From positions 1-64,000 of the forward strand of contig QPGO01000031.1 of the NCBI GenBank assembly GCA_008632985.1: 64,000 nucleotides of DNA, read 5' to 3'. The notes under the pieces were generated by a model that saw nothing but the letters and a program-made list of their open reading frames with translations, made no database searches and had not been told where the DNA came from. The position numbers and the translations under genes were made by a program. Below are positions 14,235 through 40,922 of the stretch, piece by piece. Numbering within the stretch: position 1 is the stretch's first letter; each line of letters opens with the position of its first letter. This stretch comes from Psammoneis japonica. Taxonomy: Eukaryota.

Positions 14235-14680
14235 TTTCAAGTATAGCACACTTGAGGGACGTGTTTCGTTTGCACACTGCACCAGACTCGCGAATAAATA
14301 CAGCGTAGAATTTTAAAGTGAAACAAGTAGCTAGGAAGAGCAACTTGCGACACAGATGACAGAGTTGACAAACGAACTACGATGTAGTTGTCAAAAGACT
14401 GTGATGCCAACATCCCCACTGCACTGCACTTATTTTTTACGAGCGAATTTGCACAGAGAGCCCACAGAGGTGCTCTGTGCAATTTGTGCGTACCGGTACA
14501 TAAGCGGCATTCGCGCGGACTTTTGGGGTGGAACGCGCAACCGCAAAAAATCTGCAGCAAAAGCAAAAATGTCCTGTCTTGCTAATCTCCGCCCGACAGC
14601 GACGCCATGATGAAAACTCCACTCTGGGTGACCCGTTCATCTTGTTGCAGTTCCTGATTAGACCTCTTTTATTATTCAAC

Positions 14681-17361
14681 ATGGGAGGGAAAAACTTGTC
14701 GCCTTGCTTGAGACCTTCAAACGAGTTTGCAGAGATGGTCTCAAGAAGCTGCGAGAAAGCTTCTCCGAGTCGGAGACTGCAAATCCTGTTGCTGCAGCAG
14801 ACGCATCCATGTGGGAGGTCAAGGTGCTGAAAACAACGGATGCTGTTAATGAGTTTCACATGGAGCCTCCTGTTCCAGTTGAGAAGGTTCGTGAATGCGT
14901 CATCGCCCTCATCCAAGCCTTCCTCGCAGCAAAGTTTCGGTTGATGTTTGCATTTGATGGCAACAGGCATCCGATGAAGGCAAACGAAAGAGCACAGAGA
15001 CAGAAAAACTCAATGAAGCCCAGGCAGATTTAGACAAAATGCACAAAGGGGAACTTGTGTTGGCGTGGAAAGAGCTCCACAAGCTTTGGAAAGAACTGAC
15101 GCATCCGCGGGAGGACGCACATCACGCTGCACTTCAAGTTGCCGAAGAGCACAAGATCCCAGTCATCGGAGCCCCCTTTGAGGCAGATTGGCAGCCAGTC
15201 TCCCTTGCAAGGCAAAAGGTTGTAGATTTTGTTGTCACAGAAGACAGTGACATCCCAGCTTGTGGGGCGCCATCTGCGATTGCACGTTTGTCGAAAAATG
15301 GAAAGTGTTGTTTGGCGGACCTTCAGAAGACCTTGGAGTGCAGCCTTCCAAAGAAGTTGGGCATTCATTCTGGCTTGGCTTCAAGTGATCTCCAAGCAAT
15401 GTCTTGCTTTGGAGGGAATGATTTCATTGACAGCAAGGATGGTGTCGGACCGAAGTCCGTTGAGCAGATGATGCATGTGATTGGGTTAAACTTGATGACA
15501 TTAAAAAGCATGAGTTCCTTTGGGAGTTCGCTGATGGTGACGACGAATTCCACCACAGGTGGATGATGTCAATGACACTTCTGGGACATGGTCCAGCATT
15601 TCACATTGTCCCCAATGACAGTCAAAGTGATCCATGTTCTGCTTTGCTGGAGCAAAAGTGTTCTCTCAAACTTGTGTGTGTGAATTGCTCAGCTGTTGGC
15701 GCCAATTGTTGGGCATGGGGAAATGGCGACAAAGACTTGCCATTCATTGGGTTTGACCCCAACAATCAGCTTCAGTTGGGATGGCATGAATCTGCTCTTG
15801 CCAACAAAGATGCAGACGTCTTGCACAAAGATCTTTTCATGATGAAGAAATGGGCTCACACGGGTTGCTCTGCACGGGGTGTCGAACGTAGAAAAAATGA
15901 TGAGGGATGCGAGCTGCTTCCTGGAAGCTGTGTCAATTTTCAAAAACTTCCTGCACACCTTGTCCCAACCAAAGCATTGATGTTTTGGCTCGCAGTGCGT
16001 GGAATAAAGAAGTCACATGATGGCAGAAAAGATGTTGTGAAGGAGGCACAGAAGGTGCTCTTGAGGCGGCCAGCACCTCTGCCGCTCCCTGCAATGCTGA
16101 TGCGAGGTGGTGGAGGACATGTTGCATTCAAAGTTCTTGCTCCAAAGTGTGGTGCTGATGCCGGTTCTGTGCAATGGGAGACGGGCGATGATGCGCTGAA
16201 GACTGTTTGCAGCTGGATGGTTCCTCGGATTGATGACGCACACCATTTGTCTGAGTTCGGCAAACGCAATTCCTCGCGCATCCGAGCTCTGAACCATCTG
16301 AAAGGCGGCTCCTTGAATTTGTTGTCACTGAAGTGCACTCGAGAGCTTGGAGACAACCTTGATCAAGAGAAAGAACTCCCTGTGATCCATGCAGTTTTTG
16401 CACCTTCTGTTAAAACTTCGAAGAGCCAAAATCTCATGTGCGCAGTCCGCCTTGTCATCACACTAGATGAGAAAAACAAAACGTCGAAATTGCTTCCATT
16501 TCCATGCAGCACTTGTGGCTGCCCCAATGGAGCGGGACCATGTGCCCACAGGGACTGCTTCACACTCCCACTGCATGTCATTCAAACCAAGTTGACAGAG
16601 TGGGATTATGACAAGATTGAGGACATGCTCCCAAGCCCGATTGAGTCAGTCCAAGATCTCCTGATTCCTGTCTCTTTTGCACACCCAAGGAGAACCAGTG
16701 TTGGTGCCAAGGTGGATCGCTCCATGCGTGCCAAGCCAAAACACTGCAAGGTAGAGAAGCATCATGCAAGTGGTGAGAATCAACCCGAATCAGAAGAAGA
16801 CGAGCTTGCAGTTCCGGTCAACAATTTTGACATGTCCACGAGTGATGCGGAAAGCAACGATGAAGGTCAAGAAGAATCAAAAGAGGAAGATGCGGAGGAG
16901 GAAGATTGGAAAAATGATGCACCACACAATGCACTCCCCAGCAGCATGCCAGATGCATCTTTGAAGCCACCAATTGAGGTTTGCGATGAATTCGACATGT
17001 GGCCAGCAGAGCTTCAGCTTCATTTTGACAAAACTGGCTGTTCCACTCGACACAAAGAGAAAATCAAATTGTGGATGAAGCATCAAAACGAGCAAGACAA
17101 AATGATGATGATGCATTTAAGAAACATCAGCTGTTGCGTTTGCAGCAATTCCATGGCATCATTGAGAAGGGTGAGTTTCAACCGAGCATGTTGAGTCTCT
17201 TCTGCAAGCTGCAGCTCCCTGAGATCGAGGCGAAACTTGGAGAGTTGGAAAATGCAGATGCTGGCAGTTTGCGAAAATGTAAACAACTGGAGCGGAGAGG
17301 CAAAAAACAAGAGAAGAAGACAAAAAATGGCAGCACTGTTCCAACATTTGTTTGGACTTGA
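14681..17361 (+). pseudogene. XPG/FEN1/Exo1-family 5' nuclease fused to SAP-like and SWIM zinc-finger domains (transposon accessory gene, frameshifted)
   Basis: MGGKNL start, ADASMW and AFDG (XPG-N); APFEADWQ, VTEDSD and GNDF..GVGPKS (XPG-I/H2TH); ALMFWLAVRGIKKSHDGRKDVV (SAP-like); CGCPNGAGPCAH (SWIM). Confidence 0.75.
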
Positions 17362-17691
17362 AGTCAAACTTAAAGTGGTTGCAGTGCTTTGCAGGCACCT
17401 GGAGAGGACGACACAGATTTGCGCAGCCATGACCCCACACAACAAGGTCTTCAAAGCATGCAAACTTTTCATGCTTGATCAATCCGCACAGCATCCTGCA
17501 GGTTGTCACATGTGAGTGCACAGTTTCACATGTGCATCGCAGCTGACATGCCTTCGCATTCCTTTGAATCTGTTCAGGACTGAATTGAACACATCCACAA
17601 AGGAGTGCAGGGGTCAATGTCACACTGTGGTTCGGGCAGCTTCCTGAGGTCCCTGCAAATCCCTTGTCAGTCAAGACGAGCATCTCAATTG
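17360..17691 (-). pseudogene. C-terminal part of Harbinger/ISL2EU-type DDE transposase
   Basis: LTDKGF ... TPALL.G..QFSPEQ ... LRCTCE ... GLI ... ANLCRPL matches the second D and the E region of DDE_Tnp_4. Confidence 0.75.
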
Positions 17692-17988
17692 CATCAGAGT
17701 GCATGAAATGTTAAAAATGTGTAGATTTGCACAATGACAATTTGTCAAAACATTGCAAAAAATTGTTGTCATGCAATGAAAGGCCAACCTCTGGTTGCAA
17801 GTTTGCTGCACCAATGTTGCAACAACTCATTGAGAATCATGCATGCCATTTTTCACCATGTCCACATCACCACATCTGCCTCCACCTTGTTGCCACATGC
17901 CAGTGCGTGATTGCATTGCCACACAATCCTTGGTTTGTTGATTTTCACAAACATTGTTTTAAACAAGAAAAGCATTTCATCGGTTGAG

Positions 17989-19292
17989 TCAATCCCTTGT
18001 TGCGTCTGCAGTGCAATGACCGAGTGCTGTGTCAACTGTGTGCACATTTTCTTGCTGCAACTCTCTAAAACCAAACCAGTGATCATCATCGGACTCATCT
18101 CCATCGGACTCGTCTCCTCCGTCATTCGTTTTGCCTTTTGCACCATCCTCCTGCTCATCGTCATTGCTGTTGTCGTCCCTGCTGCTCTCCACCATTGGGC
18201 TGTTCATTGCCTTCACCTTCTCCGCATCACCGGTTGGCGCTTTCTTCTTCTTCTTTTTTGCTTCTCTGGACTTCTCGCACTCGCTTTTCTTGATCTCCGT
18301 GTGCCACTTTTCAAACTCCTTGCCCTCCTTGGAGTCTCTGTCTTTCGTCACCTCTTTGCACAAATCGTCGAACCGATTGATTCCGTCGTCTCCCCAAGAC
18401 ACTCATTGTTTCTTTGGCTTTGTGCACTGAGGGGCAGGCCTTGTTTCTTTGGGCTCCATTTCCTCACCCAATTCTTCCACCGCCTCCTCCTTTTTCCTGT
18501 GTGCCCACACCTGCCAACAATTCTCCATGGCCAACAGCGCCAAAGCTTCGTCACCAACCGCAAACAACTGTGAGACCTGTGCGTTCCCAGTTTTGCAGGT
18601 GCCACTCCATGCCTGCTTTTGCTTGGTTTGAGGTAGGATGTGATCACAGAACCACTTGCATGCCTGCTTGTTCCTTCGTTTGCCGCCGGTGACAGTGTCC
18701 AGGCTGAACAGATCCCATGTCAGCACAAACGGGACATCTTTCTCTTCATTCTTGTCACGGCTTGACTTTTTCCTGCCTTGCTTTTTCCTCTTGACTGCCG
18801 CCTTGAGTTTCTTTTCTTTTTCCTTTCCCTCTTCCTCAGCGACAATGCCCACATGGACAAAGCATCACCGTCATCTTCTTGTGAGACACACGCAACTCTT
18901 GAATCACACACATTGGTCACTTGACTTGCGGGCCATTGCCTCCGCCCCAATGGCCGAACACACCGTGTTTCTGCAATTGTCAATTTGCCTTTTTACCGCC
19001 TTTTTTGCCCATTCCTCCCAAGTTCCTGACCAATTTGAAGTGTCCATGTTGCCACCAGCAATCTGTTTCTTGACAAACATTGAGACGCTCCCATTGCTTG
19101 CCAATTCTGATGGACTGAGAAACTTCACCTGTGGAAAGAGATCATTTCTAGCCACCTTCTCTGCTTCTGATTTCAATGCACCATGCGCTGCCTGCGCACC
19201 TGTTCTCTTCAACACTGCCTGAAGTCTCGGGCTCATTGGCTCAACAGTCTCATTTTTCTTTCTCTTCTTTGCCGGTGGTGCTGGAGATGACA
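17989..19292 (-). pseudogene. Accessory gene of the Plavaka-like element (degenerate, frameshifted)
   Basis: Fragments KVARNDLFPQVKF, WFCDHILP, GDEALALLAMENCW and WGDDGINRFDDLCKEVTKDR, then an acidic tail. Divergent from the transposase gene. Confidence 0.55.
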
Positions 19293-19816
19293 TCTTGATC
19301 TTTTCACAGCAACAATGAGAGGAGTGTTGCTGTTCGACAGTGCAACCGTCGTTTGGGTTGTGTTGAGACAGCCAGCCACTCTGTTTTTCTCTACAAAACA
19401 TTGAACAAATCATTGTCAGTGACATTGAAATTTGAAAATGCATTTGTGCACAACAACGAACAGTCCAACTTGCTTTTAGATGTGGCTGTCATTGCGTTTC
19501 AACGGAGACAACACCCATGAGAATCATCCAAATCTGGAAGATGATGCAATGTTTGCCGATTTCCCGCCATTTTTTGCGTGTTGTTCTTCTTTTCCCTTCT
19601 CATCCACAAGACAAGGACGACAAGTGTGAGTCTTGATGAAGGCCCTGTCAATGTTGTCTGACCAACAATGGATGGAAACCCTCTTCTCTGTCCCGGGTGT
19701 GGCAAAAGTTTTTTGCAACAGCCTGCCATTGGAGATGCTCAACAACGTGTTGCTCAGTTGCCCAAGAGTTGCAAACCCAAGATCCAATCCCAGATCAAAG
19801 CAACATTCCTGCCACA

Positions 19817-22800
19817 ATGGAGGGGCCACCCAAAGAAAGCGGTGGTTCTTCCTCTTCATCCTCTGATGATGATGAATCCCATCCGAGGCAATCTGCTCAC
19901 AGCAGATTCCCAAGATCTTCAACGAGTGATCCAAGCAGCAGCCCCTTGTTCCCCTCCCTGGATGACGCACCGCACGGAATGGACGACATGTCCTCCATTT
20001 CATCAAACCACAGCATGCATGGAGTTGAACTTTTGGCAATGAACGATTTGGATGTTGGCGGTGGTCAATCCTTTGCTGCAGTGTTGGACGTGACAATGGA
20101 GGAGGAAGAGGACATTCACGATGAGGATCAACGTTTGGGGATCAGGCATCACGCTCCAGAAGAAGAGGCCTTGGCTTCTGCTCCCTCTTTGACAAATCTT
20201 GACGGAGCTTGTGTAGAGTTGTGCAAGAAGCTCATGGACACACGTGGTGCTCCCCTGGAATTGCACGACTGCATTGTTGATTTCATTGAGAGGCACACTG
20301 GGAACAGCAACGTGCAGCTTGGTGCAGTTCTGCCAAGGAGAAAAGAGTTGATGCACACCTCAACCAAGCATTTCCCCCTTCCACCCAGCGAGTCTATTTT
20401 TCCTGTCACTCTAGAAACCAAAAATTTCAAAACCGGTTTGCCAAAACAAGTGTCAGTGCCAAGATGGGATTTCACAAAGGTTTGGGAACAGTTTTCACTT
20501 GATCCTCACCTGTGGTGCAGCAGAGAGAATGTGGCCGATCCAGACAATCCTTTTGGGAAGTACAAAGCGAAGGGACCGGATGACAAGTGCCTTTTGGCGG
20601 GTGAGTGGTGCAGGCGCAGTTACGAAGAACAGATGACTGACCCGGAGAAACAATTTCTCGAGCGCAATGTCATTCACCTCGACAAGACTGGCAGGACACA
20701 AGGGATGGGATCACATCGCGGAGAACCAGTGATCATGACCTCTGCGCATGTTGCCTTCAACAAATGGTCAGATGAGAGTGTCTGGAAACCAATTGGTTGT
20801 CTCCCTGATTTGGAAAAGATGTCGTCATCTGCGGCAAAGAATCTCTCAAACAATCACAAGGCGGAGAAGGGACGCTCGTTGAGAGACTGCCACACTTGCT
20901 TGCATGTCATTTTGGAGCCACTTTTGGAAGTCATGAGAAAAGGAGGCATGAAAACATGCGTGCGACAAGGGGATGAGATGCGATGCCTCCACGTAATCCC
21001 ACTGATCGTTCTGATCACAGGAGACGCAAAAAGTGGCAACTGTCTCGTCGGACGATACGGTGGTCACAACTGTCGTCAACGTTGCTGTCGTTTTTGCCTC
21101 ACTGGCTTCAACAAACTGGACGACCCATGGATTGAATGCAAGTTCATCCGAGGACTGGATCTCCAACAAGTGCAAACTAAGGCCAACGACGACAACAGAT
21201 CAGACCAAGAAAGGAAGCACTGGTTGGGCATCTTGCATCACCTTGAGCAACACAACGTGCCTGCCAACTGTCTTTTTGAGGCGGACTTTGGTGCACAACC
21301 ATGTGGTGTCACCCTTGCGACAGCAAGCAACATGATGCATCTCTTTGAAAATGGCACCTTGAAAAGGGTGATCAATTCATTTGTAGACAGCATGACACCT
21401 GTGGTCGCAAGTGAGGTGGACAGCACAGTGGAAAGGATTTTCAGCAATCACCGGTAAACTTGCAAAGCATCCTTCTTGCTGACAAACTTCAAAGGAGGAG
21501 AAATGTCGTGTGCCTTCCTCAACTCTCACCACTGGGCTGGAATGGCTTTTGTTTTCTACCTTCTCCTGTTGACCAGCGAGGGACGAAACGCATGTAGTCA
21601 TGCTTCCTTGACGAGGACGCAGACAAACCCATTGTTCCAGAGAATCGCAAGACACCCAAAGCAAACTTTGAGAGTTGCTGCCAACCCAGTGAGCACTTGG
21701 ACTCTGACAATGAAAGGTTGGAGGAGTCCAAAGAGGGTGACTGGGACGAAAATGAGGATGAGAAAGAGGAGAGTGAGGCAGAGGATGGTGACGACAACCA
21801 AAAAAAGAAAAAATGCAAGGGAAAAAGACTTGACTGCAGCGTCCGGCAATTCATTCAATTGCTCGAGGACCTTCTTGTCTTCCATGCATGGTGCAGGCCA
21901 GGCGATCCACCCATCGCAAGCACAACTCCCAGTTCATCCATTCAGAAAATAAACAAGAAAATCCGTCTCCTCATTGACCGGATGGTGCAATTCGTCCCGT
22001 GAACAGAAGGACACGGGTGGAAGCTTCAAAAGCTTCATGAAACACTCCATCTCCCAGTGTTTCTTTGTTGTTGCCAACATGCAATGAACTTTGACGCAGG
22101 CTTGGGGGAGTGTCTCTTGAAAGACTTTTTCAAGCTGCCATCATCTGCCGCACAACAACGCAACCTCGACAGTTTTCTGAAGCAGGTCGTGTCGTGCATG
22201 GAGGACCAAATGAGGCTCAACACCGCAATTTCAGCTGACAGTTGGATTTTGCCAACTGGGAAAAAGGAAACATCAAGAGTCAGGACGGACAATCACACAC
22301 TGGGTGGAAGTGCATTCACTCTTGCCTGCAACCAAGGGATCGGCGCTGTGACGTTTGAGTGGAACAGCTTGCATGCTCGTTGCCAAGTTCATCCTGTGTT
22401 GCCAAACTTCATGTCGGAAAAGTGGGAGGATTGTGTTGGTGAAGACAGTGAAAATGCACATCTGACTTGTAAGACAGAGTTTTGCAATGCAAATGGGAGG
22501 GATGCGCACCGTGCGCACCCCAACCACAAAAGCGAAGGCCCATGGCATGACTTTGCCTGTGGTGTGACCTTTGGCACACGAAAGGGCGATCAACAGTTTC
22601 CTTCCCGTTTGCTGTGTTTCTTTGAACAGGAAGACAAAACATCAATTTTTGCAGTGGTCCATCCAACTGCTTGTCAAGCTGACCAGAGAACTGTGAGTCA
22701 ATGGTGTCAGCATGCAGACTTGGTCAGTCGCTGGCAGCTTGATCACAAACGAAACAACTGGCTTTCAACACCTGAGAAGACTCAGCACTCACCTGAGTTG

Positions 22801-22983
22801 TGGGTTGTCCCTGTCGAAGCAATTGGGGACAATGTTTTGGTTTGTGAAGAATGTCCAGGAGTGGCAGAAGCGCAAGAAAAGGCCCCATTTGTTTGGGCCA
22901 CACAGGACAGAAGGAAGTGTTGGTCAGATTTGTTTCTAAAACAGGTGGGACGCTTGTGTCAATCCATCATTCACTCACAGTGA
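19817..22983 (+). pseudogene. Plavaka-type transposase (degenerate)
   Basis: IHLDKT...GEP...WKPIGCLP...LITGDAK...CRFC...MMHLFENG...GWKLQKLHE...NFDAG.GE...HRAHPNHKSEGPWHDFA. Frameshifts present and a probable CGA>TGA stop at 22000. Confidence 0.75.
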
Positions 22984-24138
22984 TTTCCTGGCTCTTTCTT
23001 GCAAACATGATGAATTTGATCCTTTCAGAATTGGCAAAGTCATTGTGGCACACGTGAAGCAGTGCAGTGCGAGCACCTTCCATTGCTTTTGTTCTGAAGT
23101 CTTCTTCTGAAACTCCAAGACAAGCTTCTTCCTGATCGGAAGGCTTTCCCAACCACCGTTCTCGCTGTTCTTGGGTTGCAAGGTTGCGCTTGCAAAGAAT
23201 GTGCTCGCACGGCTCTTTGCAGCATCATTGTCCATTGTGCACACGTCGAACACAGCCAACAATTTCTTCCATTGTTTGACAACCTGGAAGAAGGTTGCAA
23301 GAGCAAAGGGAATCACTGTGTCCCCCCCTTCTCCGTTTTTGGAGAGCAAGGCCCGAAGATCAATTAGATTCTGGAAAAATTGAGTCGTCCCAAAATGAGA
23401 ATCGCACCACTCTCCATCTGGCATCCAGCAGCAGTCCAACATGATTTGGTCGAACCCATGATCATCGAAATCAACAATTTTCTCAAACTTCTGCTTGACT
23501 CTCTTGACGAAATCTCTTGCTTTCACATTGCAATTTAAGTGCAGATCAGGATGGCCATCTTGGAGAGAAACTGTTGGAACGACGTTTGTGATTGTTTTGT
23601 CAGTTTCCTCAAATGCCATTGCGCACGCCTCGTCTCGCCTGTGTTGGTCGGACGACACTGAGGCCACCCCCTTCTCAGAGCATGATTCTTGAGAAGACAG
23701 ATGCCTTGCATTGAGCGGACGGGTCATCCCCAACCACAGCACATGGTGTGTTTCCCCGTTGGTTTCGTCACTTGCAAAACAATCTCCCAAGTCGCTGTGG
23801 TCCTCTTCACCCTCAGAGCAATGTGCAACTTGGTTGTGCTCATCGTCAACAGGCTCTTCGCTTTTGTCCTCTTCACCCATGCAAGCAGTTGGAAGTTCAC
23901 TTGTTTTCTCGTCAATTGACTCCTCCTTGCAATCGTCACTTTTGTTCATTGCGAATGACAACAAATCACCGGCGGCCTTCTTCCTGTTAGAACGAGAATT
24001 CAATGTGACAATGTCAGTAAAATCAGACAAAAAACAAATGTGATTGCCATGAAAAAGTGACCTCTCTTTGCCGTTCCAGTTCGGCTCGAACTTCATCAAT
24101 CGACACGAATGGGACTGGCTCCCATTCACACCTTCCAA
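22975..24138 (-). pseudogene. Cargo ORF of unknown function, with a possible methyltransferase-like motif
   Basis: Long ORF with VLWLG and FDQIMLDCCWMP (probably DYYW before TpA mutation); family not recognised. Confidence 0.4.
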
Positions 24139-26280
24139 ACCACTTGATCATTGATTGCCCATCAGAGAACAAGAGCAATGGATGCTGTCCATGACAAAAG
24201 ACATCGCAGATTCCCATCTTTTCACGAGCGACACTCAGGTCACACAGCAAAGACTCTGGACCATTCTTTCCATGGTCTTCCAAATCAAAATCACCCTCCA
24301 TCCGTTCCAAGAGTAAATTGCACTCCTCCACCGGCACCTTCATTTCCTCCATTTGCTTTGCCGCTCCCAACTTGGCTGCCGGATAGACAAGATTACGAAG
24401 GTCAGGGTGAGCATGGATCCCTGTGCCACACAGCATCAACATCTGTGTAGAGTTCATTGATCTGAACTCTCCACAATCAGCGCCTGTGTGATCCCATGTT
24501 TGGACCACGGTTTTGAACACATCCTCGATCGCCTTGTGGTCAAACGTTGGCTTGCCAACATTGTCATTGATCCAGTCCATGACAACAACCAGTCCGCCAA
24601 CAAGCAAGTCCATCAAACCGTCAAGTTTTGTCCTGCACTCTGCCACATGAACCTCCTCAAAATCGAGTCCCGGGCTCTGCATGCGTCGGTCATTGCGATC
24701 CCCCGCAATGCTGCCGAACAGCCTCGCAGCTTCTCTGAAGCAATGAAGGACACAATTGCCAGCCACGAAAGGATGCTTCACAGCATCTGTGTTGCACAAC
24801 AAGCAGCAAAAACGGGAGAATCCGGTTTGACACCCAGCCACAATGGCATGACGAAAGCAATCGTGTGCACCAACCTCATCGAGGTTGTCGATGATTGCCG
24901 AACAACCGCGCAAGAAATTAAAGTCCTTCACGATGGCAAACGGAAGACATTTCCTCGGCATGACAATGACGGGGTGCTCAACTGTGTCGGACAGAAGATT
25001 TGGCTTGCCAATTTCCTCTTCCGCCCACACAGAGTGATGGTCAAGGAAAAAATCTTTGATGTTTCTGTGGGCTGGCTTGCCCGACGAAGGACGATGAGGG
25101 CCACGGTGTCTCATCATTTCTGCAGCATGTGACAGATCAAGTTTTGTGAAATGACCATGCACACGCAATCGGAACTCGGCACACCCATGCACTGAACTGA
25201 CACAGTTTCCAGCATTGCCTTTGGATGCAGTGACAACCTTCAACGACCAAGAGCGACCACCAGCGTCTCCCAGTGACGAGCAAAGAGCACCAGTCTTGGT
25301 GCACCCATCCATGTCACAATCCTCTTTGTCAATGTGTGGCTCGGTGTTCGAACCAACGGATTTTTCGCCGGACGACGAGATGCACTTCACTTGAATTTCC
25401 ACGCCTTCCCTTCTAATGTGCTTGGCTCCAACCATCTTGTGGAGCTCAGCGCGAAAAGACTGTCACGGTGCGGGTCATGGAAGGAACGCATTTCTTTCAA
25501 AGCAACAAGATTGATTTCGTCCTCGCAGAGTTGCGCAGCGTCCAAGATTGAGGCCATCATTGGCTGCACATCCTTTGGAAGCTTCTCCCACTTGTCCCTG
25601 CCAAAGATGGCACCAGGCTTGTGAGCAGGTCCCACTTCAGCTAACTCACCATCTGCGACTTTGTAATTCTGGCCACAACAACCAAAACAGATCCAACAGC
25701 ACAACTTGCATTCTGGTCCATCCCTTTTTTCGTTCGGCTCGCCATGTTCCAACACTGCACGGAGCATTGATGACACACTGAATCGCAATCCAAAAAAGTG
25801 TTTCTGATGCATCTTGTCCATGTGTGCAAATGAGTGACCACGTCGGAAAAATGAGAGGTTGACTGGGTCGGGCAAGCAATCGCAACCATCGATTCTTGCG
25901 TCAGATCATTGGGAGCTACGCCGTTTTCAAATCCATGCACAAACTTGCGGAGGTGATTCACCAAGTGGAAATCAGAGATGCTGCAGAACAACTGGTGCTT
26001 GACACAGTTCCCCTTGAAGGAACCGGAAATGGGGGTTTCCTCAAAGACGACAAGGTGAGAATGTTGTGACTTCACCTCACCCGGAATCGCAAACAGAGAT
26101 GGTTCAGGAAACACTTTCACAAGCTCTTCTTTTGTGAAATTGTCTGGCGGAGGAGGAGGTGACTGACAAGTTGCACCAAGGGTTGGCCACTTTGTTCGGG
26201 AATGTTCAAATTGTTCCTTGAGAGTCAGCACATCTTGGAGAATCAGCGATTCGTTCTGAGAAACATCAGAAGGTTCGCCA
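24023..26280 (-). pseudogene. Cargo ORF(s) of unknown function (frameshifted)
   Basis: Overlapping minus-strand ORFs 25641-26387, 25387-25875 and 24023-25435 with globular-protein-like composition; no recognisable family. Confidence 0.4.
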
Positions 26281-30771: not shown

Positions 30772-30835
30772 ATTCACAGCGGAGTGGTTCATCGCAACCA
30801 TTGGGCAGGAGGCCAGGGGTTCGAAACCCTGAGTG
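30772..30835 (+). other. tRNA-derived segment with Pol III A-box/B-box-like motifs inside the TRIM
   Basis: CAGCGGAGTGGTTCATCGC (D-arm/A-box like) and GGTTCGAAACC at 30818-30828 (T-loop/B box). Anticodon arm and acceptor stem are not intact. Confidence 0.55.
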
Positions 30836-30918
30836 GGGGAGTTGTCTGCAGCAACGTTGATCACTGTCGAACGCGTAAAACTCTGTGCAGTTCTGCACGT
30901 TCCTTCGCACGTGCCCAC

Positions 30919-31350
30919 TGCCCCATGCATGTGCCAGGCGCTGAAAAAGAAGATGTGTCACGACTTTGTCGTTGTGAAAATTGTGAGCCAGTTTAGAGCA
31001 GAGAAAATGGGATCGTGCGAACAGGGAATCTTGCCAAATCCCTGTTCGTTCGCATTTGGATCATGTTAAATCGATCGTGCGTTCGCATCATGGATCGTGC
31101 GAATCAAGCCATCATGCGCCATGCACGAGTGATGTCATCGTGTGGAATCACGCTGCCATCGTGGGCCAGACGACGGGCTGGTGTGCTTCACATGGACGCT
31201 CTCTTGGCATCCTTCTGGATTTGCCTGAGACCTGGAGCCACGCCCTCCTGTGGTCGTGCTTCCCAGGTGCATGTCAACAACACTGCGTTGCCACGTACAA
31301 GAGGCTCATGCACGGTCTCGCCGTGTTGTCCAGCAGCGAGGCATGCTGCA
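30919..31350 (-). repeat. 3' LTR of Gypsy
   Basis: Aligns without gaps to 35776-36207. Confidence 0.95.
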
Positions 31351-31389
31351 CACTCCCCCATGATCAGGGCCGTTAAGTGACAGGATGTC

Positions 31390-34300
31390 TTGCTGGTGAT
31401 GGGGCACAATCTGCCGTAGATTGCACGCATCTGTCAGCGCTCCATTCTGGACACGCAACGTGCCGTTGTCACATGCACGGACAACTCTGGCGGGTCCTGC
31501 ATGGCTGTCAGAACCGCATTTAGAGGATTGTTCCTGTTTGACAAGCACCAATTGCCCTGCGGTGTGTTGATGCTCCTTGCGTTTCTGATTTTCACGCTTG
31601 TTGTTTAAGTGGACAAGCTTCTGCTTTCTGGCTTCTATGTGCTTCCACTTGGCACTGTGGGCAATGGATAAAACCGTGTCGCGTCCGAAGACCAATTGCA
31701 TGGGACTTGCATGCGTGGTCGTGTGTGCCGTAGCTCTAACAGCGAAGGCCACTGCGGAGAGGATGCCACTCCATGGGTCATCTTCGTCCAGTTCCATGTC
31801 CTGTGCTGAAAAGGAACGCACCATGTCACCAAGTGTCTGGTGCACACGTTCCACTGTGGCATTTGCCTGTGGATTCCGTTCACTTGTGGGTTTCTTCAAA
31901 ATCCCACAGTCATTTTTAATCATCTGGCTAAATTCTGCCATAAATTCTGTCCCGCGGTCATAAACCACCTGGGTTGGCCACGGACATCTGCACAGCCACG
32001 TTTGTTCCACGACGTTTGCTGCGATTCTGCGTGTTTCGTAGATGCTTCTTTAATCTCGAACCACCCAGTTGCTGGGTCAATCATTGTGACTGCCCACAAT
32101 TGCAAGGTGTCCTTTCCGCGTCTTTGAATTTTATGTGGCCCTGTCATGTCCATGCATGGAGTCTCCCATGGAATTATCTCTGCGACCTTTTCTGGTGGCT
32201 TCCCATGATGCTGCATTCGGCGTTTTGTCTTCTGGCATCGATCGCACTCAACGCATGTAGAATGCACCGTAGACCTCACACTGGGCCAACAGAAGTGCTG
32301 GGCAACAGATGTTTTCTGCACGTGTCTCACCTGGATGACGCAGTGTCTCGTGGTGCCATTCAGTTAGCGGAACCTGCAATGACTGTGGTGCTGCGATTTT
32401 GTCCTTATGACAGATTAACTGTCGTGATGACCCTCCCCCACGACACGCGCGAATGGAGCAGTCGGACGAGTCCTCAGCTCTTGAGAGTGGGCGCTTGTCC
32501 TTTTGTTGTGCTTTTTGAATGCGCTTGAAGCTAACAGGCAGAGACAGCTCATCTTGTGCATCTGCATTAAAAGCTTCATGCAAAGGACGACTCGATGGAG
32601 TGTCTTTTACATCCGGATTAGCCTCGGAAGGCAAGCTGGGTGCCAGTCAAAAGGCGACTGAGAGCGTCAGCGACTGGGTTGTGGGTGCCCTTAACATGGC
32701 GTAATTCGGGACCGCATTCTTCGCACATTGACCACCAGCGCATGACGCGCTCGGCATTGAATGCTTTGTGCACAAGATTTTTATGATCAGCACACATGAT
32801 CACACGATGACCAAGGAGAATCGTTCGAAATTCTTTCAACGTCTCCACAATGGCGAGCAATTCTCTCTCCGTTGTTGCACAATTTAATTGCGCACTGTTG
32901 AGCTTTCTGCTGTAAAAGCGACAGGTTTATCATCTTGGGACACAACTGCTCCCAATTGACATTTAGAGGCATCGGCACGCACCTCAAAGGGTTTGTTAAA
33001 ATCAGGATGTGACAACAAAACATCATCCGATGTTGTCCGTTTAACGGTTTCGAACGCCTCATCTTCAACGGACGTCCACTCCCACTTGACAGTCTTGCTT
33101 ACGAGTCGTGTTAGTGGAGCCAAGATTTCAGAATGTCCAATCCACGTGTCGCGGCAGCAGCTCACCATGCCAACAAATGAACGCAGGTCGCGTTCATTGG
33201 TTGGGGTCACGATTCGCTTGATGGCGTCGACTTTATCAGGCATTGGTCGCACTCCGTCTCTGTTGACCAGACAACCCAAGCATTCTAATTGGGTTTGACA
33301 GAAGTGAGATTTAGTTGCGTTAACTTTTAGTCCTGCTTTCTGGACCCTCAACAAAACTTCTTCAAGTTTGTTGAGGTGATCTTCACAGGTGCCTTTCGTC
33401 ACGACGAGAAGGTCATCTAAGTACGTTCGAACGAACGATGGATCTTCAAATAAGCCTGACATGCGTTCTTGGAAAATGTCTGGCGAATTACATAATCCCA
33501 TGGGCAACACCTGCATCTCATACTTACCCCACGGGAAGATGAGCGTGCAGAGCTTCTTACTATCAGCATCCAATCGGATATGATAATAGCCCATGTTTAA
33601 ATCCAGCGATGTAGCCCACATAAAGCCTTCGAGCTTAAGTAGCATATCTTGGATATGAGGAATCGCATAAGGCAATCGCTTAATCCGTTTATTCAGCTCT
33701 CTCAAATCATTAATAAATCGTACCGTTAAATCTTTCTTCGGTATGATAAATGATGGAGCTGCCCATTGGGATCGGTTAACGCGTTTGAGAACACCGATAC
33801 GTACTAGGCGTTCTACTTCTTTACGTAGCGTAGCTTCGTACGCACGAGGTACTTTATACGGACGAGCGTGGTATGGTTCTACACCCTCCTTGAGCTGGAT
33901 ATGGTAGGGTTCTCCCTTCCATTCTCCTAATGTCCCATCAAATAAGGACTCATGGCGTTTCAATAGAGCCAAAAGGTCGTTTTGTTTAACTATAGAAAGT
34001 CCTATTGCTCCTCGCGTTATGTCCTCGAGGCAGGCCGGCGCGTACTTAGCGTCTAAAATACGCGAAATCCGGGTGGTTTCCGAAGATAAGGATTCTGGAT
34101 CTTGAAGATAGAAGGAGGTTTCCACCGTAGCATCTACGTGCCTCATTGGTACTTCTCCAAACACTCTATCATCTGTTTAGAGAAGACAATATCAATGCCT
34201 TGCGTCTCCAGAATGTCACGTCCAATAATCATATCGTACTTGCCCAACTTTCCGTTGTGTACGTGGACGGTATATTTAAGTTCTGCAGTTTCGGATAATT

Positions 34301-34637
34301 CTGGTAACCGAAATTTAACGGTACAGTCGTTAGACGTACTAAACGAGCCTGCTACCGTAGTCCAGTTTGTCTCAGCCGTTGAATGGCTTCGCAGACGTTT
34401 ACAGTATCGACTATCGAGTAGAGTACTGCTGGCGCCACTATCTAGTAGTGCCTTAATAGTTTGAGTCTTGCCCTTGCCATGTTTAGCATTCATAGCTAAA
34501 AACAAGATTGGAGTAAGATGAGTCTTTTTAACTCGTTTACGGGATTGGCCTACAACACGTGTACGATGGTAATTCAGTTGTTCATTTATACATTCATCTA
34601 ATGTATTAAAACTACCTGTATCGTGTCGGCCCCCTTC
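31390..34637 (-). pseudogene. pol: Gypsy pol (protease, reverse transcriptase, RNase H, integrase), frameshifted
   Basis: ALLDSGAS and IIGRD (PR); LDLNMGYYHI, LPMGL and YLDD (RT); DAS and DHKNL..ADALSR (RH); H..HPG..C..C, IDPATGW, DRGTEF and VERVH (IN). Confidence 0.92.
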
Positions 34638-35681
34638 TCAGGCGTCCGAATCTTCGGAATCACTTAAGTTGAGGTCGCGGAAGTGATCAAGCTCCTCCTC
34701 GCGGGCCTTGCGCTTTTTCTGAGCGTTGGCAAAGAACTCCTCGACCTTCGATCCGATGAGAGCATTAATGTCTTCCTCATTCCGAGGTTTTGCATTAGGC
34801 TTGCCGCCTCCGTTGTTGGAATGTCCAGTCTTGACACGTTTCACGTGGTGCTTGAGCTGACGGCAATCCTCCGCATGATGTCCACAGTTGGTCCCATGTG
34901 GCATGCACGACTTCTGGGTGTTCCGTTGGGTCATGATCAATGACTCAGGATTGTCCGTTCTACGTCCCCGCTCACGTGGAACCTTAGCATGTTGGTCCTG
35001 GTTGCCTTCGGTGAGCTCGACCTGCTCGATGCGCTCGCAGAACTGCACAAATTCGGCGATGGCATGCGCCAATGGGTCAAAATTCTGCAGCGTCATGAAC
35101 TTCTGCCATGCGTTCGGCACACCACACTCGAACATGTCGCATGGTTCGTCATTGGGTGATGGTGCCGGTGTTTCTCCATCCTCCGTCGCGGGTGGAAACT
35201 GAGAGATGTGGCCGTTAATTTCAACAGCCCTCGCGACGCAGTCACGAGCAGAAACCTCTGCGGGCTTGCGCATGAATCGCCGCAGATGACGCTTCTGCAA
35301 TGGTGCCGCCCTGTGTGGGAAGATGCTTTCCTTTAGCTTTGCGATGCATGCTGCATGCGTGGCATTGGTTTGGGATGCCTGCTTGTCAGCGGCATTGTTG
35401 AATGACGTCAGAGCATCGCCCTGTGGCAGGTCACGCATGAGGGCAAATTTCGCTGGCCCGGTCGCAATGTTTTGTCCTTCGTGCACGCGATCCACATTGC
35501 GCAGAAAGATTGGGAGTGTCTCGCATGTAGCCGCAGAAAGGTGCGGAGTGCCCATCTCGTGCGTTGGACTGTCCGGATCAGCAGGGTTGTTGCGCAGCTT
35601 GAACGTCTGGCACTCGCCCTGCTGCAGCTCTTTCTTCTCCGGCCGTGCGAACGGAATCGGCGGCTTGTTCCGCTTCTTCAT
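34638..35681 (-). pseudogene. gag: Gypsy gag
   Basis: ORF directly downstream of the 5' LTR; Zn-knuckle-like CMPHGTNCGHHAEDC near the C-terminus. Confidence 0.8.
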
Positions 35682-35775
35682 GGTCGTTTTAAGATTTGTT
35701 GGTCCCACCAACATTTCGTAGTTTCGTTTCTGCAGATTTCGTCACCTCGCACAACATGCGGGAGCAATGTTGCTG

Positions 35776-36207
35776 TGCCCTGTGCATGCACCAGGCGCTG
35801 AAAAAGAAGATGTGTTGTGACTTTGTCGTTGTGAAAATTGCGAGCTAGTTTGGAGCAGAGAAAATGGGATCGTGCAAACAGGGAATCTTGCCAAATCCCT
35901 GTTCGTTCGCATTTGGATCGCATTAGATCGATCGTGCGTTCGCATCATGGATCGTGCGAATCAAGCCATCACGCGCCATGCACGAGTGACGTCATCGTGT
36001 GGAATCACGCTGCCATCGTGGGCCAGACGACGGGCCAGTGTGCTTCACACGGATGCTCTCTTGGCATCCTTCTGGAATTGCCCAAGACCCAGAGCCACGC
36101 CCTCCTGTGGTCATGCTTCCCAGGTGCGTGTCAACAACACTGCGTTGCCACGCACAAGAGGCTCATGCACGGTCTCGCCGTGTTGTCCAGCAGCGAGGCA
36201 TGCTGCA
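35776..36207 (-). repeat. 5' LTR of Gypsy
   Basis: Aligns without gaps to 30919-31350. Confidence 0.95.
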
Positions 36208-37553
36208 CCACACTGTTCCGCCAAAACCGTGCAGTGTCAGTGCACGTCAGCAAAGAGCCGCATGGACGTGTGACACATGGGGAGGAGTGCAACACACAGC
36301 TGCTGACAAGAGTTGATGCATCACGGCGACATGTTGCAGCCTTTAAATGTCACAAAGGGCGTGACAAAAACAACCTTTTGTCTGCATGCATGCTGCACAA
36401 GGCTCCCAGACAACTGTTTTCAAAAGACTGGGAATCCAAAATGAAGCAGACAAGACAAATGGTTGAGCACTCTTGGAGAGCCAACAAGAGCAGATCTCCA
36501 AAGCACCAATCAGAAATCAGGTGCTTCTTGGAAAAGCTTCCAGAAGGCACTTGCCAAAAGCAGACACAAGCACAAATGAAATTTGTCAAAAAGCACGTTG
36601 CACCTCCTTTCCAACAACCAGCTCCACACCGAAAAGAACCTTTCGTGTGCTGCCTTCTGCCTTCAAAGAACTCGGTGCAAGAACATCCTGCACAGGCAAT
36701 GATTTGGTCGGTCTGGCATCCCTTGGAACAGGTGCATGTGCTGTTGAAACCTTCAGCAGGACGTGGGAAAAGAACATGAAGGAGTGTCTCATCCATCAAT
36801 CCAGAATGAGCCCGAGTCTCAGCGCGCTCGGGTTGGTTGAGCGTCGTTTCCAGGCATTCCAAATCCAGATGCAACAAAGAGGAGTGTTGCATCAACTTGA
36901 AAGACTTCAACTTCACTCTTCTGTCCAATGTCATTGACACATCAAAAGATGAGGCAAAACAAGGGGTGAGAGCTGACACCACAAGAGCGAAAGAAGTCAA
37001 AGGAACGACAAGTCACAAAACAAAGAACGAACATGCCACCACACAATGTGACGACCACAAACGCATGTTGCCAGGACGACAACTCAACTCACACTCTGCC
37101 ACCCATTGCTCGTGCTTGTGTCATGACAACAAAATGATGTGCATTGGAGCACAAACCAAAAAAAAGGCAAAACAAAAGAAACAAAGTCAAAGGATGACAA
37201 AAAAAACGAGTCATCACACCACTTCAGTTGACGACACATTTTGCAACACGCACGGCACTTGTCGAGACTGGGCCAATGCTTGCACATGACATGGACAAAG
37301 AACATAAATCTTGTGCACAACTCACCTCATAAAAAGACGCAACGACGATGGTGCAAACGATGCAACAGCGCCATGGTGTCTGCCAGAAAAATGTGCAGAG
37401 GCTGGTGCAAAAAAGTCGTTCTCCACTTTTTGATTTTTGCCAACTGGCCAGATTGGCTCAGCACTGAAAAATGTGATGATCTGTCGGAGGTCTTTCTCTT
37501 CCTCTTCTTCCCATGCCAACTGCAGACCTCCCAAGCTGGGAGTGAAAAATGAC

Positions 37554-39511
37554 CACCCCTGAGCAGGAGCCTCCATGCAAACATTTGGTCGTGTGAATCA
37601 CGCCGAGGGGCGAATCTGAAAAAGGAGTTGGGATGCTTGCATGTTGTCTGCGTCACATCAGATGTGTTTTGAAGATGAATTTTTGTTGTGCTCAGGTGTG
37701 AAATGCCATGGAAATGAATTTGCACAGAGCCCCCCACACCACGACAACTCTGTGCACCGTCGAGCCATTCCATCGTCTTTGCAAGCTGCCGCCAACACGG
37801 CCCATGACAGAGGAGTGCCACTTGAAGCCACTGCTCCCACATCTTTTGCAAGACAACCATGCCGCCGAAGAACAAGAGCCACAGGAAGCAGCGCCAGCCC
37901 AAAAAAGAGCAAGTCAAAAGGCAAGTGGCTTGCCAGAAGCAAAAGAGAGAGTCAACAATCGCTGAGTGTGAAAAAGAAAGGAAGAACTCCAAATGGCGGT
38001 CCAGAAGGACTTCTCGTGCCACTGCAGTGTCTCTTGTTGCTGCATCCCTTACAAGCAGTGACAACCGGAAAAGCAATCTGTCATCTGTGAATGTTGCCAT
38101 TGCATTGTGCATGGAGCATGTGATGAGTCTGGCACTCAATTCATTGTGGGCCATTTGGAATGCTGCCGGTGCAAGAAAGCACTTTAGGAGAAACAATGTG
38201 GAGCAATGATGCATCTTGGTGCAGAACCCAACAAGACTGCACAAAGCACAAATGGCTCCCCTTGGGGATGGGTGATTCGGAAAGTCTCTTGATGGAACAG
38301 TCAAGCAAGGAGCTTGCACAGCCATGACTTGTGAGGTGCAGGACGCAAGAAGACTCCTCCACAGAACTCAACCAATTCCAGGTGAGAAAAGGAACCAATG
38401 AATTTCATCAGTGTTGCACGTGAGACTTGGGAAATGATTTGAAGCTGGCACACTTTGCTCACTTTCTAGAATGCAACGACAGATGAAAAGACTCATTGAC
38501 CGTCACTGTGACAGTCTTCAGAAGTGCCGGCAGCAGCCACGCAATGTGTTCAAGCCACATGAGTGGAGCTCGCTGGGTGCTGGGGATGCCACCAACCATG
38601 GCATTGTTGTCCAGATCCAGGAACCACAAATGCACCGTTGTGATCCCCTTTGTTCCCACAACATGCTTGCACATGGACAACCATTGAGAGCACTTGCTCA
38701 TTGCCATCCAGCGGTCACTTGATGCACCAATTCTTGCACAAACCTCAAATTGCTTCTGCACTTGATCTGGAGAGTCTTTGAGGGTTTGCATCGGCGCATT
38801 TGTTGAGTGCATTGGCTGCCCCCTGGTGCGACAATTGATGGAGCACAATGTTGTCAGTTCTGGTTGCTGTGTCCACGGAAACCCTCTGAGATTTTCATTG
38901 CTGACCCAAAGCTTTGCCGCACAGTGCAGCGAATCTGCTTGCGATGTGAGACAAGACAATTGTCCATGATGAAATTGTCACAGTTCATGACGCAGATGCA
39001 TCCACAGCATTTTCTTGCATCACATTGAGTGAGCCACATGTTGCCTTTAGGGAGAGATGAACAATGAATGAGAAATGTGGCACAAACACTCTTGCAAGAA
39101 GCGTTCTCATCATCACCCGACTCACTGAATCTCACCAACTCAACACTTTGCAAAATCCGATTGATCACCCTCAAACCAGTGGCATGCTGTGCTCACACAG
39201 AACTTGTGTCAATGGTCTGTGCCTCTGCTTTCTAAGGAAGAGGGAGACCACAGTCACAACAGCCTGCTGTCAAGTCAATGGCATCAATGAACCACGATGT
39301 TTGTGCGACGAGATTTGGGTTCTGAGTGGCGAAATGGCTTGACAATGCACAGATTGTCGTGGTGCAGGGGGGTTCTTGGAAATTCCAAAGAGACTGAAAT
39401 GTGCATGCCAAATCCTTGTGTCTGGCTGGGCCCTGCATTGCGAGCGTGCAAGTGCTGTGTCGGCCTGCACACCCGAACCAACTGACACGAGAACCGTCCT
39501 GCTCAGGGGTG
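37554..39511. mobile_element. ~2-kb TIR DNA element with a 9-bp TSD (Mutator-like TSD length), degenerate internal ORF on +
   Basis: 15-bp perfect TIR CACCCCTGAGCAGGA / TCCTGCTCAGGGGTG; TSD AAAAATGAC at 37545-37553 and 39512-39520. Internal fragments include GDAT and a CxxH-like CCVH. Confidence 0.75.
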
Positions 39512-39827
39512 AAAAATGACCGTTTTGAGGAACGCAGATTTTTCACCCTTCAACCACCGGACTTGGCTCCTTTACGTCACAAACACAGCAAATGAAGTGA
39601 TTTCAGATGTGGACAATGTCAAATTTGCGTGATTTTGTTTTGGAGCACGCACTCGCTGAAAATCTGGGGGACCCCTTTTTGCAATTTCGAAAGTTCAATG
39701 TTGACTTTCAACACCGGGTTTTTTGCAAGCTGCATCTGTGAACAGAGAGGAACTAAATCTCTCAACCTTCAACAATGAAGGTTGTCATGAATTGCTGTCG
39801 CAAATGGAGCAACAACACCACACCCTT

Positions 39828-40007
39828 GGAGCAAATCTCCACCGGTGGATGGAGATTTGCTCCCAACAAGCAAATGCACGTGGTGCACTTTACGCAGATT
39901 CTACACAACATGACATTTTTGTGCCATGTTCATTGCATTGTCATAAAAGTGCACGACACGTCACAAATCCATGAGCAGAGCAAATCTCCACCCGTGGAGA
40001 TTTGCTC
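39828..40007. repeat. Two copies of a palindrome GAGCAAATCTCCA-N-TGGAGATTTGCTC
   Basis: 14-bp perfect stems at 39828-39863 and 39978-40007. Confidence 0.85.
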
Positions 40008-40922
40008 CCCCCTGCTGGTGGTTGAAGGGTCAAGAATCCACATTTTCAAAATTCCGCGCAACAGATCTGATGATCTCCCCATTGCTCACTTTCTTTCTCA
40101 TCCAGTGCAATTGTCATCTCTGTCCCAGATGTCTGTTAGATTGTCCCGACACCGCCAGTCCGCAACAAACAACAAGACAACCTTCAAAATGAAGTCAAGC
40201 AGCAGCCATCGTGGCTGTCAATGCCCAACAAATTGCAGGACAAATTGAGTCACAGTCTGGGAGGAGGACTGGCCAAAAGTGCCATCATGAGTGCCATGCA
40301 CTGCTGTGCTGGTGGTTCAGTGTCTGGGATTGTGGGCACACTGGGAATGCAGGTCCTTCATTTCATCATTTTGCATGCTGTGCTGTCCTGAACAATGCCA
40401 GTGCAGGAAAAATGGCATGTGTTGCAGGTTTGTGGGGAGTGAGCATGGTTGACACACATGGTCTGCGTGGAGGGAATGAGTGCACAACGTCAATGACGTG
40501 AGAGCAATTACTTTTCTGGTTCAGTCCCTTGCAGGAAAAAAAACCTGGAAATGCGCAACACCAGAATGTTCCGAGTTCGCCGGGAGTAGTTTAGCAGGGA
40601 GCCCATGTCGTTTATCGACTTAACTATCGCTGCTCTGAAAGCAGATGCCATTGAATGAGCGCACTCGACAAACGCCAAAGGCGACGCGGCCGGTTTCCTT
40701 TTTTGTGGCGGTCGGCATCTATTTTGTGGTGTGCCATCGATTGCTTCCAATTTCCAGCACAGAACCACACCACACACTGCGTATTGCCGAGCTCGCGACA
40801 TTTCCTCGTTGCAAAACTCTCTATAATATGTTTAAGTATCTGAACGATTGCAAGTAGAAGCACTGCAGAATCGATAACATCGAGTCAGCAGCAGTGTCTT
40901 CATTGGAAGAAACGAAACTCTG

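Follow-up and report, generated by a model that had tools for sequence, protein, structure and literature searches.

A cluster of mobile elements in the diatom Psammoneis japonica has lost almost all of its TpA dinucleotides, and positions that can be traced to an earlier TpA now read CpA or TpG. The cluster lies within a 64,000-nt stretch of DNA (contig QPGO01000031.1 of assembly GCA_008632985.1, positions 1 to 64,000; hereafter "the window") and includes a gypsy element with a pair of long terminal repeats (LTRs) as well as the remnant of a Plavaka-family DNA transposon. The DNA transposon and the LTR element are both affected, and the flanking genes are spared. Based on the sequence of this one locus and on its database relatives, we consider it likely that a host-driven process acts on the chromosomal DNA of the transposon cluster, turning TpA into CpA or TpG, and halts at the cluster's edges.

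TpA depletion and its limits

Measured in 2-kb windows, the ratio of observed to expected (O/E) TpA is 0.23 at 14-16 kb, 0.04-0.10 at 16-30 kb, 0.18 at 30-32 kb, and 0.02-0.07 at 36-40 kb, compared with 0.50-0.81 in windows covering the flanking genes. At finer resolution, 250-bp windows hold 0-4 TA in depleted DNA and ~8-19 outside it. The old blocks of transposon DNA (14502-30918 and 36209-40500, together 20,709 bp) retain 92 TA, whereas the flank rate predicts 823 (binomial p ~1e-237). Both edges of the depleted region are sharp. On the left, TA occurs at 14491, 14497, and 14501 and is sparse beyond (the next are at 14583 and 14659), the loss beginning exactly where a 90-bp inverted repeat starts, at 14502. 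On the right, the final sparse TA is at 40137 and the usual density is found again from 40509. The parts of the cluster are as follows:

14502-30918, no strand assigned: TA-free block 1, old degraded transposon DNA (TpA O/E 0.04-0.23, CpG O/E 0.46-0.78)
14502-14591, plus strand: left arm of the 90-bp inverted repeat, 91% identical to 30092-30181
14662-15563, plus strand: XPG_N/XPG_I nuclease-like frames (Pfam XPG_I, E 4.2e-11; XPG_N, E 0.0054, below cut-off)
15464-17191, plus strand: 576-aa open frame, family unassigned (0.005 such frames expected by chance in the block)
17162-17710: weak Pfam match to DDE_Tnp_4
19640-21454, plus strand: Plavaka-family DNA transposase remnant, 605-aa frame, with Tyr positions now His or Cys
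30092-30181, minus strand: right arm of the inverted repeat, partner of 14502-14591
30919-31351, minus strand: 3' LTR (433 bp) of the gypsy element; identity to its pair at 35776-36208, 93.3%
31352-33285, minus strand: RNase H and integrase part of the gypsy element (Pfam), TA partly lost, survivors mostly in TAA or TTA
33286-34750, minus strand: spared island with protease and reverse transcriptase (RT), TA 7.5%, Tyr codons intact
34751-35775, minus strand: gag-side part of the gypsy element, TA almost gone, CpG still high
35776-36208, minus strand: 5' LTR of the gypsy element, 433 bp, pair of 30919-31351
Pfam domains of the gypsy element, minus strand: protease 34146-34637; RT 32887-34176; RNase H 32621-32926; integrase zinc finger 31923-32363
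36209-40500, no strand assigned: TA-free block 2 (TpA O/E 0.02-0.07 over 36-40 kb; includes near single-copy stretches)

Over the depleted region, CA and TG reach O/E values of 1.4-1.9 in 2-kb windows and CpG stands at 0.44-0.78. Expressed as shares of all dinucleotides in the blocks relative to the flanks, TA is lower by 3.53 points (down to 0.44%) and CG by 2.12 (3.30% vs. 5.42%), CA is higher by 3.12 and TG by 2.21, and all remaining dinucleotides shift by at most 1.1 points. AA makes up 8.79% of dinucleotides in the blocks and 7.71% in the flanks, hence it is not depleted, and GC content is nearly the same (0.486 vs. 0.478). An earlier reading of this DNA from its letters alone (the sequence-only reading) had claimed that TpA is nearly absent and CA/TG abundant over ~26 kb between normal host flanks, and that AA runs are intact; the O/E values and dinucleotide shares agree with it on both counts. 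It had also treated 14600-40500 as one block. Depletion holds for that interval overall, but it is not uniform: 33286-34750 is spared (TA 7.5% of dinucleotides, O/E ~1) and 31352-33285 is depleted only in part, with 37 TA remaining.

Identity of the affected elements

The sequence-only reading counted at least six unrelated elements. The gypsy element, the Plavaka remnant, and the XPG-like open reading frame are confirmed, and the DDE_Tnp_4 match is weak. A search with the frame at 19640-21454 gave 701 relatives with E<=0.001, the best at 3.3e-86, and because four of the six relatives scanned pass the Pfam cut-off for Plavaka, it is the remnant of a DNA transposon of that family. Open frames of 479-605 aa, of which only 0.002-0.08 would be expected by chance in block DNA, persist in the depleted sequence. 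The 576-aa frame at 15464-17191 has no Pfam match; its top Atlas score, 0.85, is to SAP/SWIM clusters and is best taken as a lead only.

Changes dated by the LTR pair

An element integrates with identical LTRs. Those of the gypsy element now differ at 29 of 433 positions. Seven CA-versus-TG doublets make up 14 of these, three set TA against CA or TG, and 10 set CG against TG or CA; what remains is one other transition and one transversion. Transitions thus account for 28 of the 29 differences, and 17 of the 29 are TA-derived. Since 25 CG persist in the two LTRs alike and 10 have changed in a single LTR, CpG decay predicts only ~0.5 doublets, and therefore the CA/TG doublets represent ancestral TA hit independently in each LTR. 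Per-LTR losses, estimated from small counts, are ~86% for TA, ~17% for CpG, and 2 of ~380 (~0.5%) for other sites. On these figures the rate of TA loss would exceed that of CpG decay by a factor of roughly 10 and that of other substitutions by a factor of several hundred. The composition of this young element points the same way: the process acting on TA is much faster than CpG decay because the LTRs and gag side are nearly TA-free while CpG still numbers 18-23 per 250 bp.

Conserved tyrosine positions in related proteins

For the gypsy Pol protein, we compared the window with 120 listed relatives of 1051 matches, ~60% identical, and considered columns in which at least 60% of sequences carry Tyr. 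Outside the spared island there are 20 such columns, and the window has His (CAY) in nine, Cys (TGY) in six, Tyr in one, and another residue in four. Over 33250-34750, Tyr is kept in eight of 12 columns, and two columns with Cys, at 33273 and 33282, fall just outside the switch into the spared island. The switch itself is abrupt, lying between the codons at 33282 (TGC) and 33288 (TTA), and within the spared core TTA and CTA are common as Leu codons. Columns conserved for Ile, Val, and Leu show matching changes (ACA, GCA, CCA/TCA, and TTG/CTG/GTG). In the Plavaka remnant, compared with 150 listed relatives of 701 matches, nine Tyr-conserved columns hold Cys three times, His three times, Tyr once, and other residues twice. 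That conserved Tyr codons have become His or Cys, as claimed from the sequence alone, is therefore seen in 15 of 20 gypsy columns and six of nine Plavaka columns against the listed relatives. All seven peptide strings cited in its support were searched for and found, six at 32283-33285 and one at 22507-22551.

Other genomic copies and copy number

Contigs of a public sequencing run from the same organism were aligned over 21001-41000, with a single-copy word depth of ~60-70. At the gag-side sites 34688, 34793, and 34973 the window reads CA, and TA is found in 84%, 26%, and 95% of the aligned depth, respectively; at 29579 the window reads TG and a single-copy run contig reads TA. The 40 rows shown of 843 include five TG/CA doublets and nine places where the window has TG or CA and another copy has CG. 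Tallied over all places, differences between copies comprise 211 A>G, 202 T>C, 178 C>T, 171 G>A, and 76 transversions, that is, 762 transition places against 76 transversion places, a transition total that takes in the C>T and G>A of CpG decay. Active or young copies of these families that are equally TpA-free would speak against in-place mutation; most copies instead carry TA at the compared sites. The TA-free sequence is itself matched by run contigs at ~60 depth, with 12 differences in 1755 bp, six in 859 bp, and two in 504 bp, and host DNA by contigs with no differences in 865 bp.

Because the LTR pair, the gypsy outgroups, the Plavaka outgroups, and the other copies agree, the evidence supports change by mutation in chromosomal DNA, after insertion, from TA to CA or TG. 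The same change had been proposed in the sequence-only reading, and the LTR pair, the outgroup Tyr columns, and the other genomic copies each point to it.

Summed contig depth is 4,000-48,000 over most of the transposon DNA (4,000-15,000 over 21001-29004), and most of it therefore belongs to high-copy families, given the single-copy depth. Depth drops to 70-436 at 29005-30338 and 37676-39676 (95-436 in the latter), stretches that are near single-copy at >=85% likeness, a status that may be blurred by heavy mutation, which can itself drop copies below 85%. They are equally TA-free. The spared 1.5-kb core belongs to a family whose contig depths sum to 11,000-16,000. Duplication, one of the possibilities raised from the sequence alone, is a putative trigger that neither the TA-free state of the near single-copy parts nor the sparing of the high-copy core favours, subject to the same 85% caveat.

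Sequence context and strand symmetry

The TA that survive in the old blocks are a biased sample. Compared with flank TA, survivors are enriched in TTAA (5.9x), CTAA (2.7x), and GTAA (1.4x), near par in ATAA (0.8x), and depleted in GTAC (0.28x), ATAG (0.2x), and ATAC (0.08x); ATAT accounts for none of the 92 survivors and for 130 of 1,511 flank TA (chi-square for context bias, p 4e-19). Within the gypsy element, the classes ATAC, ATAG, ATAT, GTAC, and CTAG keep one TA in the RNase H-integrase zone versus 45 in the island, and the four TAA-containing classes keep 31 versus 50. From these counts, the 3' neighbour of the changing A sets mutability in the order T>C>G>>A, so that a 3' A protects, and a product rule fits. 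The same hierarchy read on T is A-T-A > G-T-A > C-T-A > T-T-A. CG is never produced at TA sites, and TG or CA, once made, is no longer a target.

Both strands are equally affected. TG and CA occur in the ratio 1920:2013, with a scatter per 500 bp lower than in host DNA, and Tyr>His and Tyr>Cys events, counted from the codon list, form eight runs among 17 where 9.5 are expected. We also considered strand-coordinated tracts and found them unsupported: His/Cys runs are near chance, TG:CA is balanced, and no long single-strand tracts are visible.

It follows from the genetic code that a change of TA to CA or TG, whether inside one codon or spanning two, cannot create a stop codon, and the long frames therefore stay open. 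The process does remove Tyr codons and TAA and TAG stops, and it would remove TATA-like signals as well.

The same signature in other proteins

Among the 150 listed Plavaka-family relatives, three proteins (P0311, P0344, and P0380, from ENA and JGI assemblies and 28%-42% identical to each other) contain one Tyr each in 1290, 1200, and 1127 residues, respectively; the median Tyr content of the listed relatives is 3.0%. When aligned with 30 long relatives, which define 15 Tyr-conserved columns, they carry His or Cys at eight of 14, eight of 13, and six of nine aligned positions, in the same order. Within their 90% clusters, sequences are set apart by His/Cys swaps, Met/Thr swaps, and Tyr/His changes, and P0311 differs from P0408 at two positions only, both Cys>His. 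A His/Cys swap requires two base changes and is what a CA/TG doublet looks like at the protein level. Judged from these protein sequences, the pattern suggests that the same TA-erasing process operates in the hosts of all three.

The coding DNA of P0380 (metagenome contigs) and of P0344 and P0311 (viral contigs) was not found. An alignment-based scan recovered 45 related metagenome loci, none of which encodes any of the three proteins and none of which is TA-free (TpA O/E 0.38-0.82). Two of these loci with Plavaka relatives, L042 and L043, have CpG O/E of 0.02-0.05, CA/TG of 1.5-1.8, normal TpA, and a GC content of 35%-38%; they look like classical CpG-only hypermutation, in contrast to the window.

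Other features of the window

Several observations concern the surroundings of the gypsy element. A 113-bp direct repeat (30654-30766 and 36286-36398, 96.5% identical) flanks it, out of line with the LTRs. Some run contigs bridge the element directly, with joints at 30914>36208 and 30651>36398, and there would therefore be other copies of the surrounding repeat that lack the insertion. Just outside the 3' LTR, at ~30800-30870, is a tRNA-like 3' half with the T-arm-like sequence GGTTCGAAACC; ARAGORN called no tRNA anywhere in the window. We also asked whether the inverted repeat at 14502-14591 and 30092-30181 bounds a single 15.7-kb element, an interpretation that is unsupported: there is no target-site duplication, and copy depth varies along the stretch.

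Elsewhere, a separate TA-poor patch of ~680 bp (42384-43060, with two TA) lies amid host genes and is directly followed by a TA-rich microsatellite (43061-43142). On the plus strand, long, slightly overlapping open frames at 1653-11857 carry PAN/apple and ricin-type lectin domains and probably represent a single, very large gene interrupted by few short introns or frame changes. A tandem duplication of ~216 bp (86% identity) is present at 305-739. The diatom affinity of the host genes is read from one of them, listed here, which has no near-identical match; a match of ~100% would be expected for Bigelowiella natans, represented in the MMETSP and JGI sets, so the window is probably not from that species. 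A MUS81-like open reading frame and an IM30-like gene, the latter with 11 matches, yielded no informative taxa.

59909-60709: acyl-protein thioesterase (best matches 69%-72% identity; the named ones are diatoms, including Thalassionema, Odontella, and others)

Comparison with known systems

The sequence-only reading was aware of no published description of such a process, but one now exists. Mettrop et al. (2026; bioRxiv 10.64898/2026.01.13.699255) report TpA to TpG or CpA hypermutation of integrated viral DNA, together with TpA-depleted genes resembling transposable elements, in the chlorarachniophyte Bigelowiella natans. According to the main text of that preprint, 231 of 302 nuclear mutations in mutation-accumulation lines fell in two integrated viral regions, 230 of these 231 were A>G or T>C, all on TpA per the authors, and the rate was ~6e-7 in viral regions against 3.5e-10 elsewhere, a difference of ~1000x. 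The hypermutations arose in some lines only. The B. natans genome is described there as holding 124 TpA-poor, CpA+TpG-rich clusters, with TpA-poor genes enriched in RT and DDE, and an ADAT2-like DNA adenine deaminase is proposed. The main text gives neither diatoms nor an extended motif, 3' hierarchy, or strand symmetry. In a literature search that left most subscription journals outside its reach, this preprint alone described the signature, and nothing was found for diatoms.

As far as the preprint's main text allows comparison, the case in the window appears to match every sequence-level feature of the B. natans process: A>G or T>C at TpA, restriction to foreign or mobile DNA, local limits, and a rate far above background. 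The differences are ones of target, extent, and mode of observation. B. natans carries giant-virus and virophage insertions, whereas the window holds transposons with a dated LTR pair; TpA O/E is near saturation in the window (0.02-0.1) but 0.45 in the B. natans viral region; CpG decay accompanies TA loss in the window, unlike the B. natans case; and the B. natans process was observed arising live, whereas ours is read from a finished sequence. The window probably represents a second lineage, a diatom beside a chlorarachniophyte, for TpA-targeted hypermutation.

Better-known systems resemble the window in part. Like repeat-induced point mutation (RIP) of ascomycetes, the process in the window involves transitions in a dinucleotide context at the DNA level that ruin transposon copies in place within sharp limits. 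RIP, however, changes C to T mainly at CpA, making TpA and stop codons and leaving DNA AT-rich, whereas in the window TpA is destroyed, no stops are made, and GC is steady. Its hallmark, C>T at CpA that raises TpA, is thus absent from DNA in which TpA has fallen to 0.44% and CA and TG have risen; the polarity is opposite. CpG decay through 5-methylcytosine yields CA and TG and is present in the window as a second, slower signature (10 of the 29 LTR differences), but it cannot remove TpA, and the young gypsy element has lost TA to a far greater extent than CpG. The claim that neither RIP nor 5-methylcytosine decay can account for the loss of TA therefore stands.

Among the deaminases, APOBEC3 offers a parallel as deaminase-type editing against mobile DNA; it converts C to U in the cDNA while reverse transcription is under way, which yields G>A, and resident copies and DNA transposons are not its targets. 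The ADAT, TadA, and ADAR enzymes convert A to inosine, which is read as G, and a 5' U or T is typical of the tRNA A34 and ADAR sites. Their natural substrates are RNA, whereas the window concerns DNA, with a 5' T that is apparently obligatory and a 3' A that protects.

Weighing the explanations

The process that we consider likely would be enzymatic and directed at silenced mobile DNA, and of the same kind as that seen live at TpA of viral insertions in B. natans. The affected domain would be cytosine-methylated, as the co-occurring CpG decay suggests. Adenine in DNA would be deaminated to hypoxanthine and read as G in the next round of replication, a chemistry to which we give somewhat less than even credence. 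The host mutational process on transposon DNA put forward in the sequence-only reading gains support from the in-place, post-insertion TA transitions. Its more specific version, A>G at TpA on either strand, fares less evenly: transitions at TA are borne out, but A and T cannot be told apart as targets in a palindromic dinucleotide.

Several points weigh against the host-driven process as we have framed it. The enzyme behind the loss of TA is putative, postulated from the mutation pattern, as are the base attacked, the targeting cue, and the defence role. Since TA is a palindrome, attack on T would fit the sequence equally. TA retention in the gypsy element is ~10% in the LTRs and gag side, ~27% in the RNase H-integrase part, and ~100% in the protease-RT part, and neither an "all repeats" nor a "whole domain" rule predicts the spared core or these sharp steps; the patchiness may come from mutational episodes with differing footprints, a cue that missed the core, a gene-conversion tract, or a recombinant core. 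The public run is one sample, maybe the assembly's own data, and so cannot confirm the base calls independently. Finally, the natural DNA adenine deaminase activity of amphioxus ADAT2 prefers GAA (PMC10354150), which is roughly the opposite of the context in the window and weakens the ADAT2 idea a little.

Of the alternatives, modification of the thymine of TpA is the one we take most seriously, although we regard it as unlikely. An enzyme of the TET/JBP kind would modify T, and the modified base would pair with G and give T>C. Every LTR, Tyr-column, and context count fits T>C as well as A>G, and the context hierarchy read on T, from A-T-A down to T-T-A, mirrors that for A. In addition, uracils substituted at position 5 mispair with G, and dinoflagellate 5-hydroxymethyluracil favours TpA. 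However, we have met no precedent for a clean, transition-only outcome and encountered neither the modified T nor a modifying enzyme, and excision repair of a modified T should add other outcomes, whereas transversions occupy only 76 of 838 places among copies and one of 29 LTR differences. Much less probable still is error-prone patch repair by an enzyme like DNA polymerase eta (Pol eta) at WA motifs in methylated chromatin, a candidate named in the sequence-only reading. The errors of Pol eta favour A after T or A and are often A>G, and CpG decay in the domain would provide mismatches for repair. The fit is poor even so, since AA is undepleted, transversions are rare in the LTR pair and among the copies, ~86%-90% of TA is converted with other sites almost unchanged, and in the young LTR element TA loss has far outpaced CpG decay.

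The remaining explanations place the change somewhere other than in mutated chromosomal DNA. If TA were modified and miscalled or misassembled, the true DNA would still read TA, and it counts for this that the confirming run is possibly from the same sample as the assembly and that its library type is unrecorded. We nevertheless think such an artefact very improbable: contigs at ~60 depth reproduce the TA-free sequence, random miscalls on two strands should also give CG and yet CpG is depleted, the LTRs and other copies are fixed differently (CA vs. TG) at the same site, and proteins from unrelated public assemblies carry the same Tyr>His/Cys pattern. Slightly less credible still is A-to-I editing of transposon RNA by an ADAR- or ADAT-like enzyme, fixed by reverse transcription and insertion. 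Such editing would draw on the 5' U preference typical of RNA adenosine deaminases, as noted in the main text of the B. natans preprint (bioRxiv 10.64898/2026.01.13.699255), and edited templates could produce the stepped mosaic of the gypsy element. Its hallmarks would be edits common to both LTRs and confined to retroelements, but the LTRs, copied from one template, differ at 17 TA-derived positions, the gene for the Plavaka DNA transposase shows the change to the same degree, TA is missing from near single-copy stretches, and the edge at 14502 coincides with a feature of the DNA. Least probable of all, to the point of being negligible, is a native composition of the elements or selection against TA. 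It is true that TA is under-represented in most genomes, the flanks here included (O/E 0.5-0.8), but the spared core of this same gypsy element has O/E ~1, conserved Tyr positions have been destroyed, and other copies keep TA.

Significance

No process of this kind is known to have been described before 2026, and the sole report concerns viral insertions in a chlorarachniophyte. The window adds a probable second lineage, saturated transposons, chromosomal action dated by an LTR pair, and an extended motif with strand symmetry; the motif and the symmetry are properties that any candidate enzyme must reproduce. It also points to a cheap screen at the protein level, namely the search for Tyr-free transposon proteins with His/Cys-swap variants, of which three were present among 150 relatives.

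We tentatively suggest a wider interpretation, which we hold to be possible rather than probable: that a dedicated defence edits A (or T) at T-A-(not A) in mobile DNA, guided by a chromatin or RNA cue, and is widespread in protists of the stramenopile-alveolate-Rhizaria (SAR) group, including diatoms, chlorarachniophytes, and the hosts of the Tyr-free Plavaka proteins, as a mirror image of RIP. If this were true, the defence would disable elements by erasing Tyr codons, stops, and TA-rich control signals while leaving their frames open, and a chromatin or RNA cue, rather than duplication, would explain why the edges are sharp and why the core was spared. Should the process prove real and enzymatic, it would constitute a natural A:T to G:C rewriting of chromosomal DNA at a two-letter motif, aimed at invaders, and thus a counterpart, with opposite polarity, to RIP and APOBEC editing. 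A natural enzyme that edits adenine in DNA would also be of interest for base-editing work.

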